In this document: positions 47,752 through 62,520 of the stretch, piece after piece
Position numbering within the stretch: position 1 is the first letter of the stretch
Layout: each line of letters opens with the position of its first letter
Virus record (IMG/VR): IMGVR_UViG_3300028283_000231
Direction: 5' to 3' (one strand)
DNA length: 64,000 nt
DNA from: a virus
Taxonomy: Duplodnaviria > Caudoviricetes
The notes under the pieces: model-generated
What the model was told of the DNA's origin: nothing
Database searches by the model: none
The model's input: the letters and a program-made list of their open reading frames with translations, nothing else
Made by a program: the position numbers and the translations under genes

Positions 47752-48483
47752 ATGAAATACTTAATAGGAATACAACCAACAGGAAAACTACATATAGGAA
47801 ACTATCTTGGATGTCTGGCAAAAGGTTTACGCCTTCAAAACGAAGGTCACGACGTCACATTCCTTATAGCAAACTATCATAGTATGACCACTGGTTCATA
47901 CACAGAAGAAACTGAAAATGAGTTAGTTAGATTGGGTTGTAAAAATATAAAGCGTCAAACACCTGAGTACACAGAGAAGTTCTTTGAATTATGTTGTAAA
48001 ATGAATTTGGGTCAACTTTTAAAGATGCCTCAATACAAAGATAAGAGAGACAAGGTGGAATATGATTTAGGATTACTTTTATATCCAGTGTTAATGACGG
48101 TAGATATAATAATCAACGATCCAGATGTGATTATTGTAGGATTAGATCAAGTGGCTCATATAGAATTAGCTAATGATATAGCAAAAAGAGTAGGAATAGA
48201 TAAACATTTTGAGTACGAACTGGGGGATATAAATAAGATAATGTCTTTGATAGATCCAACAATTAAAATGTCTAAATCATCTGGTGAAAAACACGTTCTT
48301 TATATCTTTGATGAAAACTATAAAAGTAAATTGAAGAAGGCTAATATGAATGACGAAGGATTACTTAATTTGAGAAAGATTGGTGATTTCTTTGGAATAG
48401 AAAGATGTGATTCAAATTTTGAATATAAAATGAGATTAGCTGAAGTATTAGAAAAAACCTTCCAAGAGGAAGAAGTCTTCTGA
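47752..48483 (+). CDS. trpS: Tryptophanyl-tRNA synthetase, minimised (243 aa)
   Basis: GIQPTGKLHIGNYLG (HIGH), YPVLM..DI, VGLDQVAH, KMSKS. Confidence 0.88.
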   Translation: MKYLIGIQPTGKLHIGNYLGCLAKGLRLQNEGHDVTFLIANYHSMTTGSYTEETENELVRLGCKNIKRQTPEYTEKFFELCCKMNLGQLLKMPQYKDKRDKVEYDLGLLLYPVLMTVDIIINDPDVIIVGLDQVAHIELANDIAKRVGIDKHFEYELGDINKIMSLIDPTIKMSKSSGEKHVLYIFDENYKSKLKKANMNDEGLLNLRKIGDFFGIERCDSNFEYKMRLAEVLEKTFQEEEVF

Positions 48484-54795: not shown

Positions 54796-54963
54796 ATGTT
54801 CACATCAACAGAAAATAAGATAAAGCTAACCATTGTTAAGGCTAATATCGCAAAGAGCGTTAGAGAGTTAGCGATCTTTTCTATCTTGGATGAAATCAAG
54901 AAGAAGGCTGGTGATAACTATATTCCTGCTGATCCTTACGGTGAAGAAATTTGGGATAAATGA
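54796..54963 (+). CDS. Small protein ending DPYGEEIWDK (not in the ORF track)
   Basis: Manual translation, 55 aa; TATCTTTG promoter at 54771. Confidence 0.7.
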   Translation: MFTSTENKIKLTIVKANIAKSVRELAIFSILDEIKKKAGDNYIPADPYGEEIWDK

Positions 54964-55211
54964 GAAATCTTAAAATAGGTAATAGGGTAAAATATAAGAA
55001 CAACGAAGGAGAAGTGTTTGATATACAGTATCAAAATTACGATCAAGTTGTTGGTGTAAAATTCGATAGACGTTGGCGTTGGGATATGCCTGAGTCTAAA
55101 GAGTTTTATTTTCATTATAATGCTATTAAGAAAATCATAGTTAGGGTTTTCAGTGCTGAAGATCCTTATGGTGAAGAAGATTGGGATTATTAACTATTAA
55201 TATAAATAAAA

Positions 55212-55394
55212 ATGAAAAAACTTTACAAATCAAAAAATGACGCTGTGATAAGTGGAGTATGTGGTGGTTTGGCTGAATATTTTAACATAGATTCATTTCT
55301 TGTTAGATTGTTATTCGTACTCTTTTCCTGGATGGGATTTTTCCCTGTATTTCTTTATCTTATTTTAATGTTAACTTTACCTGAAAAACCATAA
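55212..55394 (+). CDS. PspC-domain membrane protein
   Basis: KLYKS..D..ISGVCGGLAEYFNID..LVRLLFV. Confidence 0.88.
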   Translation: MKKLYKSKNDAVISGVCGGLAEYFNIDSFLVRLLFVLFSWMGFFPVFLYLILMLTLPEKP

Positions 55395-55398
55395 CGTT

Positions 55399-55926
55399 AT
55401 GATAACGATGTTTGTAACATACGATCTAGTATGTAAAGAGTACGAAAAAGAGTCTCAAGAACTCATTAATGTACTGAGAAATAGTAACAGTAAGTATAAA
55501 GACACCCCAGTTGAAAAACTCCATTGGGCATATTCTTTTTCTTATTTCAGAAAAAAGTCTGAAAACACACCTGAATATTACGAAACACTCTTTAAACTTC
55601 CCTTTGAGGAAAGATTAGAAGTGGAATTGAAAAGAGTTAGAGTAAGTCTAGCTTTATCTGCTGGATATTTCTATCTATCAGATAGGGTAACTAACGTTTC
55701 TGATTCAGTTAAAGAAACAGTTAGGCTTATCACTACACAGAAAATGGTAAACGAACAACAAATGATAGGTGACGAAAATGTACTCAACTCTATACCATTT
55801 GTTAAAAATGAAGAAAAACCACAACCAACATCTTTACAGGATCAGTTAAAACAAGCTATTGATACTGAGGATTATATGGAGGCGGCTAGGATTAGGGACG
55901 AAATTAAAAAATTACACGAGGCGTGA
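55399..55926 (+). CDS. Hypothetical protein with C-terminal UvrB/C (UVR) motif
   Basis: LQDQLKQAIDTEDYMEAARIRDEIK. Confidence 0.75.
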   Translation: MITMFVTYDLVCKEYEKESQELINVLRNSNSKYKDTPVEKLHWAYSFSYFRKKSENTPEYYETLFKLPFEERLEVELKRVRVSLALSAGYFYLSDRVTNVSDSVKETVRLITTQKMVNEQQMIGDENVLNSIPFVKNEEKPQPTSLQDQLKQAIDTEDYMEAARIRDEIKKLHEA

Positions 55927-56962
55927 CGATATTATTATATTTTGGATTAATATTTGCTTTTTATATTGTACCTATTGTAATAGTCTTTATCATTTCGCAT
56001 AATAGTAATGATTTTGAACTAAACAATAGAGGTATGGTAATTCATTTAATACCTCTTGTTGCTATTATCAGTTTGGTTATAATAGCTGCGTCTATTATTA
56101 AAGATTGGTGGGATGATAACGGATTTGAATTTACAATTATTGATAATGTTAAAGAGAGTTTAAGAGAAAGAAAAATAAGAAAAGAAAAGAGAAAAAGGGA
56201 TTTAGAAGAAAGATTAAGGAAGATAAAGTTGGGTATTATTAAGATTTCACCTCAAGATCCGTATGGTGAAGAAAATTGGGATTAATATGTTACCAAAAAC
56301 TAAAAGAGAAAAATTATTATATTTCATGCCAAGTGATGTGAAAGAAGTTTGGGATAAATTAGAACAAAATGTGCAAGAAAATATAATAGGCGCTTCTGAA
56401 TTTTATATTCTTGATAGTTCATGGAAAGTGGAACAGTTTTGGAAGACTAGACGATTAGATTTATATATAAAAAAGGTCATTAAAAGAATATTCAGCGCTG
56501 AAGACCCTTACGGTGAAGAAAATTGGGATTAAAAGATTTATATATAAATAAAAAAGATTTAAATAAATTATGAACATTAAATTTAATACCTTTTTAAACG
56601 AAGAAATGACTCATAAAGAACTAGCGGAAGATCTAAAAACAGCAAAATTCATTCAAGTTGAATTCGTTGGTAAAGGTAAAAATTGGGGACTAACATATAC
56701 CAAAGACGGTGAAAAACACGAAGAAGGTGGGTTTAATACTAACGCTGATGTTCATAATTTCTTAGTAGATAACGATATAGATTACGGTGGTAAGCCAGGT
56801 TATTTACAGATGAAGGGGTTTAGGGATAAACAAATCGCCAAAGTACCTTTTGGTAATTATCAAAGGCAATTGATGGATAACGGAATAGATCCAGAATTAT
56901 TGATGTAAATTTTTTTTATATAGAAAAGAAGCTTATATTTGTATTAGTAATTATCAGTGAAC

Positions 56963-58172: not shown

Positions 58173-58206
58173 AAACCCAATCAGCAATGATTGGGTTTTT
58201 TGTTTT
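58173..58206 (+). terminator. Intrinsic terminator/attenuator before tRNA-Leu operon
   Basis: aaacccaatca-gcaa-tgattgggttt plus U-tract. Confidence 0.9.
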
Positions 58207-58234: not shown

Positions 58235-58375
58235 AGATTGCTTACAGCAAACAAAACGGCTCCCGCCAAAAATTGGGAGAGTAGTGTAAGGGTAACACAC
58301 CATTGGACGCAGAGAAAAAGCAAAGATGGAGAATGTTGGTTCGAGTCCAACCTTATTTTAAAAAGGCAATCTGTT
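58235..58375 (+). ncRNA. ACAGCAA-motif stem enclosing a degenerate tRNA
   Basis: agattgctt/aggcaatct stem, ACAGCAA, internal D-arm-like and T-arm (gttggttcgagtccaac) elements. Confidence 0.5.
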
Positions 58376-58378
58376 TAT

Positions 58379-58460
58379 GCCCTTGTGGCGGAATTGGTAG
58401 ACGCGCTAGACTTAGGATCTAGTGTCTCCGGATGTGCAGGTTCGAGTCCTGTCAAGGGCA
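58379..58460 (+). tRNA. tRNA-Leu(TAG)
   Basis: ctaga-ctTAGga-tctag, long variable arm. Confidence 0.93.
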
Positions 58461-58465
58461 CAAAA

Positions 58466-58549
58466 GCGGTTATGGCGGAATTGGTAGACGCGCCAGCTTG
58501 AGGGGCTGGTGTCCGCAAGGACGTAGGGGTTCGAGTCCCCTTAACCGCA
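58466..58549 (+). tRNA. tRNA-Leu(GAG)
   Basis: ccagc-ttGAGgg-gctgg, long variable arm. Confidence 0.93.
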
Positions 58550-58551
58550 CA

Positions 58552-58670
58552 ATGAAGTATGACGAAGAGGTAGACGTATTACCCGCCAAGGGTAAACATG
58601 GGAAAGACCGAAGTACAAGGGCTAACCGCTGATAAATCAGTCTTATAGGTTCGAATCCTATTACTTCATT
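58552..58670 (+). ncRNA. Enlarged tRNA-like RNA
   Basis: atgaagt/acttcat acceptor, intact T-arm, non-canonical anticodon loop, about 45 nt of extra structure. Confidence 0.5.
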
Positions 58671-58675
58671 TACAA

Positions 58676-58759
58676 GCCGATGTGGCGGAACTGGTAGACG
58701 CGCCACACTCAAAATGTGGTGTCCGCAAGGGCGTGTGGGTTCGAGTCCCACCTTCGGTA
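58676..58759 (+). tRNA. tRNA-Leu(CAA)
   Basis: ccaca-ctCAAaa-tgtgg, long variable arm. Confidence 0.93.
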
Positions 58760-58765
58760 CAAAAT

Positions 58766-58838
58766 GACTCTGTAGCCTAATTGGTAGTGGCGTTGGGTTT
58801 AAGCCCCAAATATCTCGGTTCGACTCCGTGCAGGGTTA
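58766..58838 (+). tRNA. tRNA with Leu(TAA) anticodon and short variable arm
   Basis: ttggg-ttTAAgc-cccaa; 4-nt variable region; A73. Confidence 0.8.
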
Positions 58839-58843
58839 CAAAT

Positions 58844-58917
58844 GGCTCTATGGCGTAATAGCGTAGTCGCGCAAGTCTTAGAAACTTGATGTCCCAGTTC
58901 GAGTCTGGGTAGGGCCA
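58844..58917 (+). tRNA. tRNA with Leu(TAG) anticodon and short variable arm
   Basis: caagt-ctTAGaa-acttg; 4-nt variable region; A73. Confidence 0.8.
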
Positions 58918-58972
58918 CAAATATGAAACAATGGGACCATATAATTTTTATATATAAGAATAAAACTCATAT

Positions 58973-59743
58973 ATGGAACAATTCATTTACACTTTAACAG
59001 ATCCAGAAGACGGTGATATAAAATATATTGGAAAAACTAACAATATTGAAAAAAGAATTAAAAGACATTATTCTGATTATTATATTCAGTTGGAACCTTG
59101 GACAAAAAAGAATAAATGGTTAAAATATTTAAAAAATAAAAAATTGGTTCCGATTATAGAAATATTGGATATTGGTGATGATAATAATATCAATAATTTA
59201 GAAAAATATTGGATATGCCAATTTAAAGTTTGGGGATTCAAGTTAAAGAATCAGACTGATGGAGGTGATGGAGTATCTTGGTTAGGTAAAAAACACAGTG
59301 ATGAAAGTAAAAGATTGATGAAAATATCTAACACTAGAAAAAGGTCAATAATAATGTATGATTTAAATTTAAATCCAATAATAAAATTTATTAGCATAAG
59401 AGGGGCTGAGAGAGAAACTGGAATATTTAGACAACAAATAAAATTTAGTTGCGATTTAAAAGGTAGTGCCGGCGGTTGTTATTTTAGATATGATGAAAAC
59501 AATTCGAATATTCTTGAAGATAAAAACTGGAGAGATTATATAAATATAAGAAATTATGGAAAATTTGATAAAAATCTAGATAAAGAATATTTTGAAACAG
59601 TTGTTAAAAAATCAAAATCATACCGTGATGTAGTTGATAATTTGAATGTTAATTATGATAGTAAAGTGAAACACCATGTTTATAGAATCATAAAAAAATA
59701 CAATATAAATATAGATCATTTCACAAGAAAGGAAAAGAAATGA
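58973..59743 (+). CDS. GIY-YIG homing endonuclease
   Basis: FIYTLTDP..IKYIGKT; LKNQTDGGDG; own ATATATA promoter. Confidence 0.88.
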   Translation: MEQFIYTLTDPEDGDIKYIGKTNNIEKRIKRHYSDYYIQLEPWTKKNKWLKYLKNKKLVPIIEILDIGDDNNINNLEKYWICQFKVWGFKLKNQTDGGDGVSWLGKKHSDESKRLMKISNTRKRSIIMYDLNLNPIIKFISIRGAERETGIFRQQIKFSCDLKGSAGGCYFRYDENNSNILEDKNWRDYINIRNYGKFDKNLDKEYFETVVKKSKSYRDVVDNLNVNYDSKVKHHVYRIIKKYNINIDHFTRKEKK

Positions 59744-61266
59744 AGAAAAAAATGTTTGTGGTTCCGATGATACCATACCCTAGCGGTAATATCCATATGG
59801 GTCATATGAGAAATTACACCATATCTGACGCTATAGCCAGGTACTGGAGAAATAAAGGATACGAAGTTTGCCACCCTATTGGATGGGATTCCTTTGGTAT
59901 GCCAGCAGAAAACGCAGCTATCAAAAATAACATTCATCCTAAAGAATGGACAGATGCCAATATTGATAACATGCGAAACCAAATGAAAAGAATGAATATG
60001 TCTTTTGATTGGGACAAAGAAATATCTACATGTGAAGTTGATTACTGGCAACACGAACAAAGATTCTTTATAGACGCTTGGAAAGCAGGGTTCATTGAGA
60101 AGAAAATTGGCATAGTAAACTGGGACCCAGTGGATCAAACAGTTATGGCATCAAATCAAGTTATCGATGGAAAGGGTTGGAGATCAGGAGCTAAGATTGA
60201 GAAGAAAGAGATGGTTCAATATTATTTCAAAACTACTATGTTTGCTGATGAGATGTATGAATCAATAAAAGATATTGAGAATGATTGGCCCGAAATCATA
60301 ACAAAACAACAAAAACAATTTATTAAAAACGGTATTAGGGAAGGAGACGAAGTAAGACCTTTCGCAGATTGGTGTATTTCAAGACAAAGATTTTGGGGAA
60401 CTCCGATTCCTATGATTAATTGTCCAAAATGTGGCACTGTTCCAAACGAACAAATACCAGTTATTGCTCCACATGACGTAGAATTTAACGGTAAAGGTAA
60501 TCCTATCGATAATCATCCAACTTGGAAATATATTAAATGTCCAGTTTGTGGCAGTGACGCTGAAAAAGAAACAGATACTATGGACACATTCGTACAATCA
60601 AGCTGGTACTTCATTCGTTACATATCAGACTTTAATGGTGTTAGATTTGATTGGGATAAGATAAAACATTGGTTTCCAATTGATTATTATATTGGTGGAG
60701 CTGAGCACGCTACTGGTCATATGATTTATGCCAGATTTTTCTGGAGGATTTTTAAGAAGATGGGATATATTCCAGAGGATGCTCCCACTGAACCTTTTGG
60801 TAAGGTTATTACTCAGGGTATGGTGAAGAAGGATGGTAAGAAAATGTCTAAAAATTTTGGTAACGGGGTATCTCCAGATGAAATGGTGGAGAAGTATGGT
60901 AGTGATGTAATAAGAATGTATATTATGTTTGCTGGTCCTCCTGATCAAGATTTTGAGTGGATTGATGATAATATATCTGGTTGTAATAGATTTTTCAAGA
61001 AATTCAAGAATGGGTTTGAAAGAACTAAAGGGATGGTTTATGTAGAGAATAAGAAGAATGAAGATTGGGCGAAGAATAGAATAGAAGTGATGAAACAGAG
61101 AACTAAAGATGTTTACGAAAGGACATATAAGTTTAATACTATTGTATCTACGGCGATGGAAACTTATAACGCCATATCGAAGACAACAGATATAAACATT
61201 TGGAGGAATGGTTATGATGCTATTATGGACGCGATGGAGCCAATTGCACCGGGATTCAGAACGTAA
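59740..61266 (+). CDS. leuS: Leucyl-tRNA synthetase lacking CP1 editing, Leu-specific and C-terminal domains (508 aa)
   Basis: PYPSGNIHMGH, GWDSFGMPAENAA, DWCISRQRFWGTPIP, TMDTFVQSSWY, YIGGAEHA, KMSK. Confidence 0.92.
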   Translation: MKKKMFVVPMIPYPSGNIHMGHMRNYTISDAIARYWRNKGYEVCHPIGWDSFGMPAENAAIKNNIHPKEWTDANIDNMRNQMKRMNMSFDWDKEISTCEVDYWQHEQRFFIDAWKAGFIEKKIGIVNWDPVDQTVMASNQVIDGKGWRSGAKIEKKEMVQYYFKTTMFADEMYESIKDIENDWPEIITKQQKQFIKNGIREGDEVRPFADWCISRQRFWGTPIPMINCPKCGTVPNEQIPVIAPHDVEFNGKGNPIDNHPTWKYIKCPVCGSDAEKETDTMDTFVQSSWYFIRYISDFNGVRFDWDKIKHWFPIDYYIGGAEHATGHMIYARFFWRIFKKMGYIPEDAPTEPFGKVITQGMVKKDGKKMSKNFGNGVSPDEMVEKYGSDVIRMYIMFAGPPDQDFEWIDDNISGCNRFFKKFKNGFERTKGMVYVENKKNEDWAKNRIEVMKQRTKDVYERTYKFNTIVSTAMETYNAISKTTDINIWRNGYDAIMDAMEPIAPGFRT

Positions 61267-61558
61267 AAAATATATATAGAAATAAAAACAAATTATGAAA
61301 GTTTTTGTTAAGATTTTATTAGTGATTATATATTTAGTTGTTGTTCTATGGGCCATTGGACAAAGTATAGACACATTACCATTCCATTTTGCTGATTTTC
61401 TAGTTGCTTTATTTGCTTTTGGTGGTATAATATATTGGGCAGAGCTTGACGTAGAATATATTTTTAAGTTCATTGATTGGTTAAAAAGTAAGAAGAAATC
61501 TTAAAAATGGATAAATATCAAACTTTTCCTGTTATATATAATATGTATATCGTAGAAC

Positions 61559-61786
61559 GTGTTGTTCTGCGATAAAAAAATAAATATAATAATGAATATG
61601 AATGGAAAAGTAAAGTTCTTCAATGAAGCTAAAGGTTTTGGTTTTATTTTAGAAAATGAAACAGGAAAAGAGTATTTTGTACACGCCACAGGTTTAGTCG
61701 ACAGAATACAAGAAAATGACGAGGTTGAGTTTGAATTAACTCAAGGTAAAAAGGGATTAAATGCAATTGATGTTAAGCTAATATAA
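61559..61786 (+). CDS. cspA: Cold-shock protein
   Basis: GKVKFFNEAKGFGFI, YFVHATG; real start probably MNMNGK/MNGK at about 61592-61598. Confidence 0.93.
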   Translation: MLFCDKKINIIMNMNGKVKFFNEAKGFGFILENETGKEYFVHATGLVDRIQENDEVEFELTQGKKGLNAIDVKLI

Positions 61787-61811
61787 TAGTAATCAACATA
61801 AACATTTATCT

Positions 61812-61843
61812 AAAAGACCCTGAGAAATCGGGGTTTTTTGTTT
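61812..61843 (+). terminator. Intrinsic terminator after cspA
   Basis: gaccctga-gaaa-tcggggtt plus U-tract. Confidence 0.8.
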
Positions 61844-61913: not shown

Positions 61914-62384
61914 ATGAGAAAAGATATATTAGAGAAAAAAGATCAAATTGTAAAATGGATAGAAGATAATCAATCTAAGGCTTTTATATGTAGAGAAATA
62001 GAATGTAAACCCTTAACATTAGATCTTTATTTGAAGAAATGGAAAATAGAATATTCTGGTAATAAAGGATTAAAGGGTAAAAAAATAGCACATAATAGGT
62101 CACACGTTTCTAATTATTTGATTAAAGGTTCTTTAATTACAAGTTATAAGTTAAAGAAAAGACTAATTAGGGATGGGGTAAAAGAAAAAAAATGTGAAGT
62201 TTGTAGGTTAACTGAATGGAATAATAAAGAAATTCCATTGGAAGTACATCATATTGATGGTGATAGTTTTAATAATGAGTTAACAAATATAATGTTATTG
62301 TGTCCTAATTGTCACGCGCAGACTGATACTTATAGAGGATTGAACAAACATATATATAAAAATAGGAAAAAAGACATCAAATAA
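61914..62384 (+). CDS. HNH endonuclease
   Basis: CEVC...LEVHHIDGD..NN...N..LLCPNCH. Confidence 0.88.
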   Translation: MRKDILEKKDQIVKWIEDNQSKAFICREIECKPLTLDLYLKKWKIEYSGNKGLKGKKIAHNRSHVSNYLIKGSLITSYKLKKRLIRDGVKEKKCEVCRLTEWNNKEIPLEVHHIDGDSFNNELTNIMLLCPNCHAQTDTYRGLNKHIYKNRKKDIK

Positions 62385-62436: not shown

Positions 62437-62520
62437 GCCGATGTGTTGTAATAGGTAGCCAAGACAGACTTAAAATCTGTTGAGAGTAATCTCGTGCCGG
62501 TTCGAGTCCGGCCATCGGTA
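62437..62520 (+). tRNA. tRNA-Leu(TAA), canonical long arm
   Basis: acaga-ctTAAaa-tctgt. Confidence 0.92.

Follow-up and report, generated by a model that had tools for sequence, protein, structure and literature searches.

Can a leucyl-tRNA synthetase (LeuRS) still serve tRNA when both its editing domain and its C-terminal domain (CTD) are gone? LeuRS is among the best-studied synthetases. In bacteria the CTD, which contacts the G19:C56 elbow pair of the tRNA, is regarded as essential for tRNA binding, while the CP1 editing domain guards against norvaline and other near-cognates. The question is raised by the IMG/VR virus record IMGVR_UViG_3300028283_000231 (Duplodnaviria; Caudoviricetes), a stretch of 64,000 nucleotides referred to below as the window, which carries a gene for a LeuRS of 508 residues with neither domain. 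We suggest that this gene encodes a working, stand-alone, non-editing LeuRS of a Mahaphage-type huge phage that serves the adjacent tRNA-Leu genes, a reading to which we give about an even chance.

A LeuRS reduced to catalytic body and anticodon-binding domain

By sequence and fold, the product of the open reading frame (ORF) is a bacterial-type class Ia LeuRS. Searched with phmmer against the PDB, it matches Neisseria gonorrhoeae (Ng) LeuRS at E 7e-133, IleRS at 1.6e-28 and MetRS at 5.6e-21. The best matches are all bacterial-type, and the archaeal Pyrococcus horikoshii LeuRS reaches only E 3e-23. Pfam finds class I synthetase catalytic families only, with no match to PF13603 or PF08264. The alignment to the 877-residue Ng chain falls into three blocks, in which residues 2-196 align to 33-226, 207-364 to 429-586 and 364-483 to 631-759.

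The initial annotation, made from the DNA alone, had described a 508-codon LeuRS ORF on the plus strand, in which a linker of about 12 residues replaces CP1, the Leu-specific domain is absent and the chain ends before the CTD. The ORF listing and the phmmer blocks bear this anatomy out. The CP1 editing domain (about 200 residues) is replaced by residues 197-209 (NGIREGDEVRPFA), i.e., 13 residues by the phmmer blocks and the family alignment. The Leu-specific domain (about 45 residues) is reduced to KKDG (363-366), and the C-terminus lies about 93 residues short of a full-length LeuRS, which removes the CTD and its tether as well as the final helix of the anticodon-binding domain. One loss had been left out of that description: the N-terminal 30 or so residues, the YNxKEIExKWQ segment of most relatives, are also gone, and the reading frame upstream of the start codon faintly resembles the lost segment. 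The loss of the Leu-specific domain stands, but it is not specific to the phage. The nearest cellular LeuRS, of 805-822 residues, also lack this domain (GMVLKDGSKMSK), and its loss is thus older than the phage family. From these alignments, the phage-specific losses appear to be CP1, the CTD and, in the subclade of the window, the N-terminal 30 residues.

Structure prediction, which the initial annotation had named as a check, gives a LeuRS fold. The AlphaFold2 model made with the family alignment has a pLDDT of 92.1 and a pTM of 0.90. All of the top 50 Foldseek matches are LeuRS, with TM-scores by query of 0.81-0.90, and those to the N. gonorrhoeae, E. coli, T. thermophilus and M. mobile enzymes are 0.84-0.90. 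The predicted fold consists of the LeuRS catalytic body, the zinc CP2 module and the helical anticodon-binding domain. In the model, CP1 is cut out at the base of its beta-ribbon, and a hairpin stub remains.

The gene is intact and has no second half

A gene lacking this much could be in decay, could have been misassembled or could be one part of a gene split in two. A close curated relative is the uncultured 735,411-bp phage LR756501/LR756503, which is 91% identical in nucleotides over the region and 97% identical in the amino acids of LeuRS. Its LeuRS gene also encodes 508 residues, starts and stops at the same points and likewise lies behind the GIY-YIG gene. The ratio of nonsynonymous to synonymous substitution rates (dN/dS) between the two LeuRS genes is 0.023 (dN 0.019, dS 0.80), and against the 86%-identical gene P0002 it is 0.042. 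For more distant pairs in the family the synonymous sites are saturated, but dN/dS does not exceed 0.22. The window LeuRS is intact and under strong purifying selection, which speaks against a remnant, and there are no frame disruptions in 43 family members.

The public sequencing runs that contain the stretch are lake-water metagenomes. Contigs from an independent lake-water DNA sample match 58971-60128, 60117-60828 and 60803-61315 with 0 differences. Every junction, including the CP1 junction and the stop codon, is thereby bridged by independent DNA, which excludes an assembly error, and the CP1 junction is common to about 45 relatives from independent metagenomes.

The missing domains are not encoded elsewhere as far as the searches reach. 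When full-length LeuRS is searched against the window with tblastn, only two blocks are found, both within the LeuRS ORF. LR756501 served as a stand-in for the whole genome; it is a relative and not the same phage, so a phage-specific trans factor is still conceivable. In all of its 735 kb, a Pfam scan that is positive in 14/14 control genomes finds no PF13603 editing domain, and no tRNA_bind domain (PF01588) is present. Searches with the last 89 residues of Nautilia LeuRS and with PF08264 return nothing besides the LeuRS gene. This genome has one class Ia synthetase gene, and its one LeuRS match corresponds to residues 22-226 and 425-730 of the Nautilia enzyme. A CTD profile built from 75 LeuRS C-terminal domains, which recovers 71/74 held-out CTDs, finds no CTD in the six-frame translations of LR756501 and the window, the best score being E 1.7. 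Together, the negative searches of the window and for PF13603 and the CTD make a split gene, or a CP1 or CTD homologue acting in trans, very unlikely.

The initial annotation had itself raised an assembly error or a split gene supplying the domains, and neither is found in the window or in LR756501. What can be said for decay is that a vestige of the lost helix follows the stop codon, that the faint N-terminal resemblance precedes the start, and that homing endonuclease genes flank LeuRS. Given the selection, the identical gene ends, the bridged junctions and the absence of other LeuRS pieces in both sequences, we regard a remnant, artefact or half gene as extremely improbable.

A phage family and its evolution

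A search of 5.8 billion proteins returns about 45 relatives of 510-547 residues at 61-86% identity, encoded on contigs up to 549 kb, together with three forms of 645-647 residues that retain a CP1 remnant detectable by Pfam. The next matches, at 42-49% identity, are the LeuRS of 805-822 residues mentioned above, several of which are labeled Nautilia or Campylobacteraceae by their sources. In a representative library at 50% identity, the short family forms one cluster. The distance from W183 of the WP motif to W211 of DWCISRQ is 28 residues in 43/43 short forms, and this identical linker length argues for one ancestral excision.

In a maximum-likelihood tree, the family is monophyletic (SH-aLRT 100) with a long stem, and it is sister to full-length Campylobacterota-like LeuRS (SH-aLRT 99). 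The 645-residue forms nest within the short family, although monophyly of the short forms is not rejected by the approximately unbiased (AU) test (p 0.187). We therefore do not claim that these forms regained CP1, and a single deletion is the simplest history. They may instead represent a surviving intermediate of the reduction. Their genes (L006:6001-7938 and L007:4412-6349 for P0041; also P0042 and P0043) encode 645-647 residues with a CP1 remnant of about 105 residues and degenerate editing motifs; the WIGKS junction is canonical and the CTD is absent.

The reduction at the two ends is uneven within the family. In most members, both the YNxKEIExKWQ segment and the final anticodon-binding-domain helix are present. 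The N-terminal segment is gone only in the window subclade (P0001-P0004), and the stop about 12 residues early is found only in the window and LR756501. Insertion of the GIY-YIG gene was considered as the cause of the N-terminal loss and rejected, as a relative free of the endonuclease has the same short N-terminus.

The same architecture is seen in a second huge phage, LR745206 (634,780 bp). Its LeuRS-like gene (L010:2995-4263) encodes 422 residues and has no CP1, zinc CP2 module or CTD. Within the anticodon-binding domain its chain stops where that of the window LeuRS does (…PGFNI and …PGFRT, respectively), but the two are only 35% identical, and, unlike the short forms of the phage family, the LR745206 protein has Trp in the NWIG motif and Met where the Ng enzyme has L550. 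It is nearer to cellular LeuRS of 985-996 residues, and the best member of the phage family ranks 145th among its matches. The next 2 kb or so contain ten tRNA genes, but no tRNA-Leu is among them. Judged by these sequence relationships, the architecture without CP1 and CTD arose at least twice independently in huge phages, and two independent origins favor a workable design over an accident. The initial annotation had called the reduction to 508 residues more extreme than in Mycoplasma, but the LR745206 protein goes further still, as it is smaller and lacks the zinc CP2 module as well.

Two further candidates were set aside. P0226 (503 residues) looked like another lineage without CP1 and CTD, but its gene runs to the contig end. 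P0268 (588 residues, L012:6001-7767), a bacterial-type form, retains part of CP1 but has no CTD. Its neighbors are eukaryote-type genes (Spo11/TopoVIA, WD40, PTPA), and it probably serves an organelle in a compact-genome protist.

The activation site is kept

Active-site residues were mapped onto Ng numbering, with their roles taken from the study of that enzyme (PMC9424281). Y43, D80, H49, H52, G544, E546, H547, H551, Q580, V583 and KMSK are kept throughout the family. N55 is found in 39/46 and M582 in 45/46 members, both being present in the window protein, as is Y554, which is conserved in the family. F41 is Ile in the window protein, at a position that contacts the substrate by its main chain. 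In KMSKN (368-372) the first four residues are invariant, while the fifth is Asn in 4/46 members and Ser in the rest. From this mapping, the residues predicted to bind leucine, ATP and the adenylate are kept.

The anticodon-binding domain is less conserved than the core, with a mean pairwise identity of 0.55 against 0.72-0.77 within the family. The cellular group has the same gradient (0.63 against 0.79-0.81), which indicates that the domain is not decaying.

The gene lies beside tRNA-Leu genes

Five tRNA-Leu genes precede LeuRS and a sixth lies at 62437; all six have A73. Two of them (UAA and UAG) are 73-75 nucleotides long with short variable regions. A tRNA-Leu array directly upstream of LeuRS is found in the window, LR756501 (L001), the P0002 contig (L015) and the 549-kb P0028 contig (L004), and there is none near P0019 or P0041. 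In LR756501, all 5 tRNA-Leu that ARAGORN calls, out of 59 tRNAs in total, belong to the array upstream of LeuRS.

Between the array and LeuRS lies the GIY-YIG gene, whose TGA overlaps the LeuRS ATG (ATGA). It is present in LR756501 but not in the 86%-identical relative (L015), where LeuRS begins 17 nucleotides after the last tRNA-Leu, and by this comparison the gene is a mobile insertion. The initial annotation had given the GIY-YIG gene its own promoter. A sigma-70 scan returns 35 sites against 23 expected in AT-rich DNA, where such scans inform little.

Apart from the hairpin after the cold-shock-domain gene, the plus strand has a single strong terminator candidate, at 58173-58198, which precedes the tRNA array. 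Two weak candidates with 5 pairs lie at 58335-58351 and, within the LeuRS gene, at 60731-60744. With strong hairpins only before the array and after the cold-shock-domain gene, the tRNA array, the GIY-YIG gene, LeuRS, the 69-residue protein and the cold-shock-domain protein look like one unit. The coordinates of all features are collected in Table 1.

Table 1. Positions in the window of the LeuRS gene, its parts and the genes around it.
Feature	Position	Strand	Basis
Five tRNA-Leu genes (UAG, GAG, CAA, short-arm UAA, short-arm UAG), all A73	58379..58918	+	
GIY-YIG homing-endonuclease-like gene between tRNA array and LeuRS	58973..59743	+	Pfam GIY-YIG E 7e-07, weak NUMOD1/3
Minimal LeuRS gene, 508 residues (P0001)	59740..61266	+	ORF, PDB phmmer, AlphaFold2, Foldseek, dN/dS
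HIGH signature HMGH (residues 19-22)	59794..59805	+	H19, G21, H22 invariant in 72 aligned LeuRS
CP1-hairpin segment ASNQV, N139 at Ng E169	60148..60162	+	Comparison of LeuRS sequences
KQFIK, F194 for Trp of NWIG motif (Ng W223)	60313..60327	+	Comparison of LeuRS sequences
13-residue linker (197-209) for CP1	60328..60366	+	Alignment; beta-hairpin 199-206 in model
Zinc-binding CP2 module, CPKCG and CPVCG kept	60421..60552	+	C267 invariant; C228, C231, C270 at least 90% conserved
Priming loop and helix GGAEHATGHMIY, G326 at Ng L550	60694..60729	+	G320, E322, H323, H327 invariant
KKDG for Leu-specific domain, then KMSKN loop (368-372)	60826..60855	+	Alignments; M. mobile equivalent GKDG
Helical anticodon-binding domain, about residues 406-508, without last helix	60955..61263	+	Helices 409-499 at pLDDT 92-98
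In-frame vestige of last anticodon-binding-domain helix, past stop codon	61267..61293	+	tblastn with P0041: KIYIEIKTN against HVCEEIKSN
69-residue hydrophobic protein and cold-shock-domain protein, downstream genes of apparent unit	61295..61786	+	ORFs
Strong intrinsic-terminator-like hairpin (11- or 13-pair stem and T run) after unit	61811..61840	+	

Does the enzyme charge tRNA-Leu?

We propose that LeuRS shares its transcription unit with the phage tRNA-Leu genes and would add to the supply of Leu-tRNA(Leu) during infection. It would charge tRNA-Leu without a CTD, and the lost elbow contact would be offset by others. Candidates for these are K340 and K363, two lysines added in the family near the active-site entrance, and the anticodon-binding domain. 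Since CP1 is missing, mischarged tRNA would not be cleared after transfer and accuracy would probably be lower, which a short lytic cycle could tolerate.

Several observations weigh against this proposal. LeuRS of T. thermophilus and E. coli is reported to lose both aminoacylation and post-transfer editing when the CTD is deleted (PMC3561953). All of the 12 other clusters found here of LeuRS without CP1 and with a complete C-terminus (12/12) keep the C-terminal tRNA-binding domain and extend 89-174 residues past the end of the phage protein. The window protein has further lost the N-terminal 30 residues with its subclade, and the last helix of the anticodon-binding domain together with LR756501. 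The residues conserved specifically in the family are all in the catalytic body and none is in the anticodon-binding domain, so there is no pointer to a new recognition surface there. In favor of the proposal, identical contigs, including 59584-59874 across the GIY-YIG/LeuRS boundary and 60140-60450 across the CP1 junction, occur in two metatranscriptome libraries from different studies. The contigs from these libraries cover most of the LeuRS gene, and no weight is given to the parts left uncovered or to a one-base deletion (60241) in one low-depth contig. They are a weak hint of transcription of LeuRS, as DNA carry-over is possible.

Three residues that matter in Ng LeuRS are also changed. 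The position of L550 is Ser, Gly or Ala in 46/46 family members (Gly in the window) and Leu or Met in 174/187 LeuRS with CP1. The position of W223 is Phe in 43/43 short forms, while it is Trp in 186/187 LeuRS with CP1 and in the three 645-residue forms. The position of E169 is Asn in the window subclade only, and Glu in 38/43 short forms and in 186/187 LeuRS with CP1. In the Ng enzyme, L550G slows aminoacylation 25-fold and transfer 31-fold and hits mainly the transfer step, not activation, E169G makes Leu activation 24-fold worse, and E169 bonds W223 and Y554 in the closed state (PMC9424281). We suggest that the three changes could mark a dismantled switch, which would have coupled hairpin closure, the peptide flip and the movement of the editing domain. 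With no editing domain left to move, such a switch could be taken apart.

The same facts can be read differently, namely that the protein is an adenylate-forming paralogue of LeuRS that no longer charges tRNA for translation. It could then sense or regulate the tRNA-Leu unit, protect tRNA, or donate leucine to another acceptor. The perfectly kept activation site, the changed transfer-step residue in the whole family and the missing CTD all agree with this, and there is a known example of a LeuRS that is conserved although it does not charge, namely LeuRS-I of Sulfolobaceae, in which formation of Leu-AMP and binding of tRNA-Leu are not followed by aminoacylation (PMC9437257). However, the anticodon-binding domain of about 100 residues is constrained about as in cellular enzymes, the gene lies beside tRNA-Leu genes in four lineages, and two phage lineages converged on the design of core and anticodon-binding domain. 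No candidate genes for an alternative acceptor or pathway are conserved at the family loci inspected. On balance we consider a non-charging paralogue rather unlikely.

The protein could also be an active LeuRS that depends on a partner in trans for the tRNA elbow, either a phage RNA-binding protein, such as the cold-shock-domain neighbor, or a host factor. The LeuRS of Aquifex aeolicus consists of two subunits. A cold-shock-domain gene follows LeuRS in the window, LR756501, L015 and L013, with no strong terminator between the two in the window and only the weak 60731-60744 candidate inside LeuRS. In bacterial LeuRS, the CTD is a flexibly tethered, separate module (PMC3561953). Against such a partner stand the negative results with the validated CTD profile and for PF01588 in LR756501, and the cold-shock neighbor is missing from the loci of more distant family members. 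We hold this variant to be improbable, and clearly more so than a non-charging paralogue.

If the phage LeuRS is an active, stand-alone enzyme, a broader statement can be speculated. On at least two independent occasions, huge phages would have arrived at a LeuRS whose charging of tRNA-Leu does without the elbow contact of the CTD, and such recognition is not known for bacterial-type LeuRS. Here the enzyme would form a dedicated pair with co-transcribed tRNA-Leu that include class-I-like short-arm UAA and UAG species, and leucine charging would be partly independent of the host. In this full form the statement is unlikely, slightly more so than the loss of charging.

Other observations in the window and its relatives

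Further genes around LeuRS differ between close relatives. An HNH endonuclease gene (61914-62384, plus strand) follows the cold-shock-domain gene, and LR756501 has no counterpart ORF of at least 50 residues there. In LR756501, an ORF of 236 residues with an N-terminal CxxxCxxC (L001:5793-6503) lies instead between the genes for the 69-residue and cold-shock-domain proteins. This suggests that inserted genes around LeuRS turn over rapidly.

Some tRNA-like elements lie in or near the array. At 58553-58670 (plus strand), between tRNA-Leu(GAG) and tRNA-Leu(CAA), a stretch of about 118 nucleotides combines an acceptor-like stem of 8 bp with a GGTTCGAATCC T-arm; it is called by neither ARAGORN nor Rfam. 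At 58275-58359 (plus strand), an Rfam tRNA match (37 bits) has no ARAGORN call. The 59 tRNAs of LR756501 include two with a CUA anticodon ('Pyl') and three to which ARAGORN assigns no type, and LR745206 has an ARAGORN tRNA with a four-base anticodon (GTAG; L010:5528-5601). These CUA-anticodon, untyped and four-base-anticodon tRNAs are possible suppressor or recoding tRNAs.

A TrpRS-like protein of 243 residues is encoded at 47752-48483 (plus strand; Pfam tRNA-synt_1b, E 5e-35), inside an array of Ser, Lys, His, Phe and Trp tRNA genes. Its alignment to the 326-residue Bacillus TrpRS is limited to residues 6-230 of the latter, and it thus lacks about 95 residues at the C-terminus. By this alignment, it is a second class I synthetase of the window trimmed at its tRNA-distal end. 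Finally, three consecutive small ORFs at 54960-56532 (plus strand) end in near-identical acidic tails (…AEDPYGEEDWDY, …PQDPYGEENWD and …AEDPYGEENWD). LR756501 has the motif as well (…MDPYGEENWD), and these proteins may share the tail as a C-terminal tag for docking or targeting.

Implications

A conserved natural family without CP1 and CTD contradicts the expectation from the CTD deletion mutants. If active, its members would have the smallest natural LeuRS body that charges tRNA, i.e., a core, a zinc module and an anticodon-binding domain, and they would show how elbow recognition can be dispensed with. They would then inform the study of how synthetases evolved and help in the engineering of compact or orthogonal pairs, and giant phages would be seen to accept lower-fidelity translation late in infection. 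If they do not charge, they are a new case of viral recruitment of a synthetase body for another job. Partly host-independent charging, if true, could offer an escape from host defences or shut-off acting on tRNA-Leu or LeuRS. In either case, the switch model proposed for N. gonorrhoeae LeuRS is put to a direct natural test by the Gly, Ser or Ala found at L550, the 'peptide-flip' position, and by the Phe found at W223.

Comparison with known LeuRS systems

The closest known parallel is the exceptionally small LeuRS of Mycoplasma mobile (PDB 3ziu), in which a nonapeptide takes the place of CP1 and GKDG that of the Leu-specific domain; the nonapeptide can even stand in for CP1 in E. coli LeuRS (PMC3643597). 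The initial annotation had pointed to Mycoplasma, and the shared replacement of both domains makes M. mobile the right comparison. Like the M. mobile enzyme, the phage protein has a short peptide for CP1 (KEEIDGKIT in M. mobile, a 13-mer in the phage) and a tetrapeptide for the Leu-specific domain (GKDG and KKDG). The Foldseek TM-score between the M. mobile structure and the phage model is 0.84 by query and 0.70-0.76 by target, the latter being the highest of all. In phmmer, phage residues 2-484 align to 35-526 of the 637-residue M. mobile chain. Unlike the phage protein, however, M. mobile LeuRS still has the N-terminal segment and runs on for about 87 further residues at the C-terminus, the CTD among them. 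The tree, from which M. mobile is absent, places the phage family as sister to full-length LeuRS, and the two CP1 losses thus appear to be independent.

The other 12 clusters without CP1 (635-726 residues), among them P0130, P0144, P0155, P0167, P0182, P0196, P0199, P0207, P0213, P0259 and P0262, have a complete C-terminus and branch elsewhere in the tree. They resemble the phage family in the clean excision of CP1 and in similar linker lengths, but they keep the Trp of the NWIG motif, which the phage short forms do not.

Conserved extra copies of LeuRS with damaged or altered editing and C-terminal parts are known from archaea, namely LeuRS-I of Sulfolobaceae and LeuRS2 of haloarchaea (PMC9437257). 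They differ from the phage LeuRS in being cellular paralogues of the archaeal type, which retain a disrupted CP1 and a divergent C-terminal domain. This C-terminal domain is acidic in the Sulfolobaceae LeuRS-I type, while in the phage protein CP1 and CTD are absent and not just altered.

Among phages, Al-Shayeb et al. (2020) described huge genomes with up to 15 synthetases and 67 tRNAs each and suggested that the synthetases charge phage tRNA variants (PMC7162821). All the largest genomes, of which the biggest curated one measures 735 kb, belong to the Mahaphage clade, and Bacteroidetes hosts were predicted for those above 634 kb. The main text of that paper does not discuss LeuRS domain architecture, and our search of full-text literature, with subscription journals outside its coverage, found no paper on a phage LeuRS without CP1 and CTD.

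The engineered CTD deletions of E. coli and T. thermophilus LeuRS lack the same module as the phage LeuRS, and truncation of the CTD lowers tRNA binding in M. tuberculosis LeuRS (PMC3561953). The phage form is instead natural and conserved, and it lacks CP1 as well. LeuRS without CP1 was already known from M. mobile; the form without a CTD is the new part.

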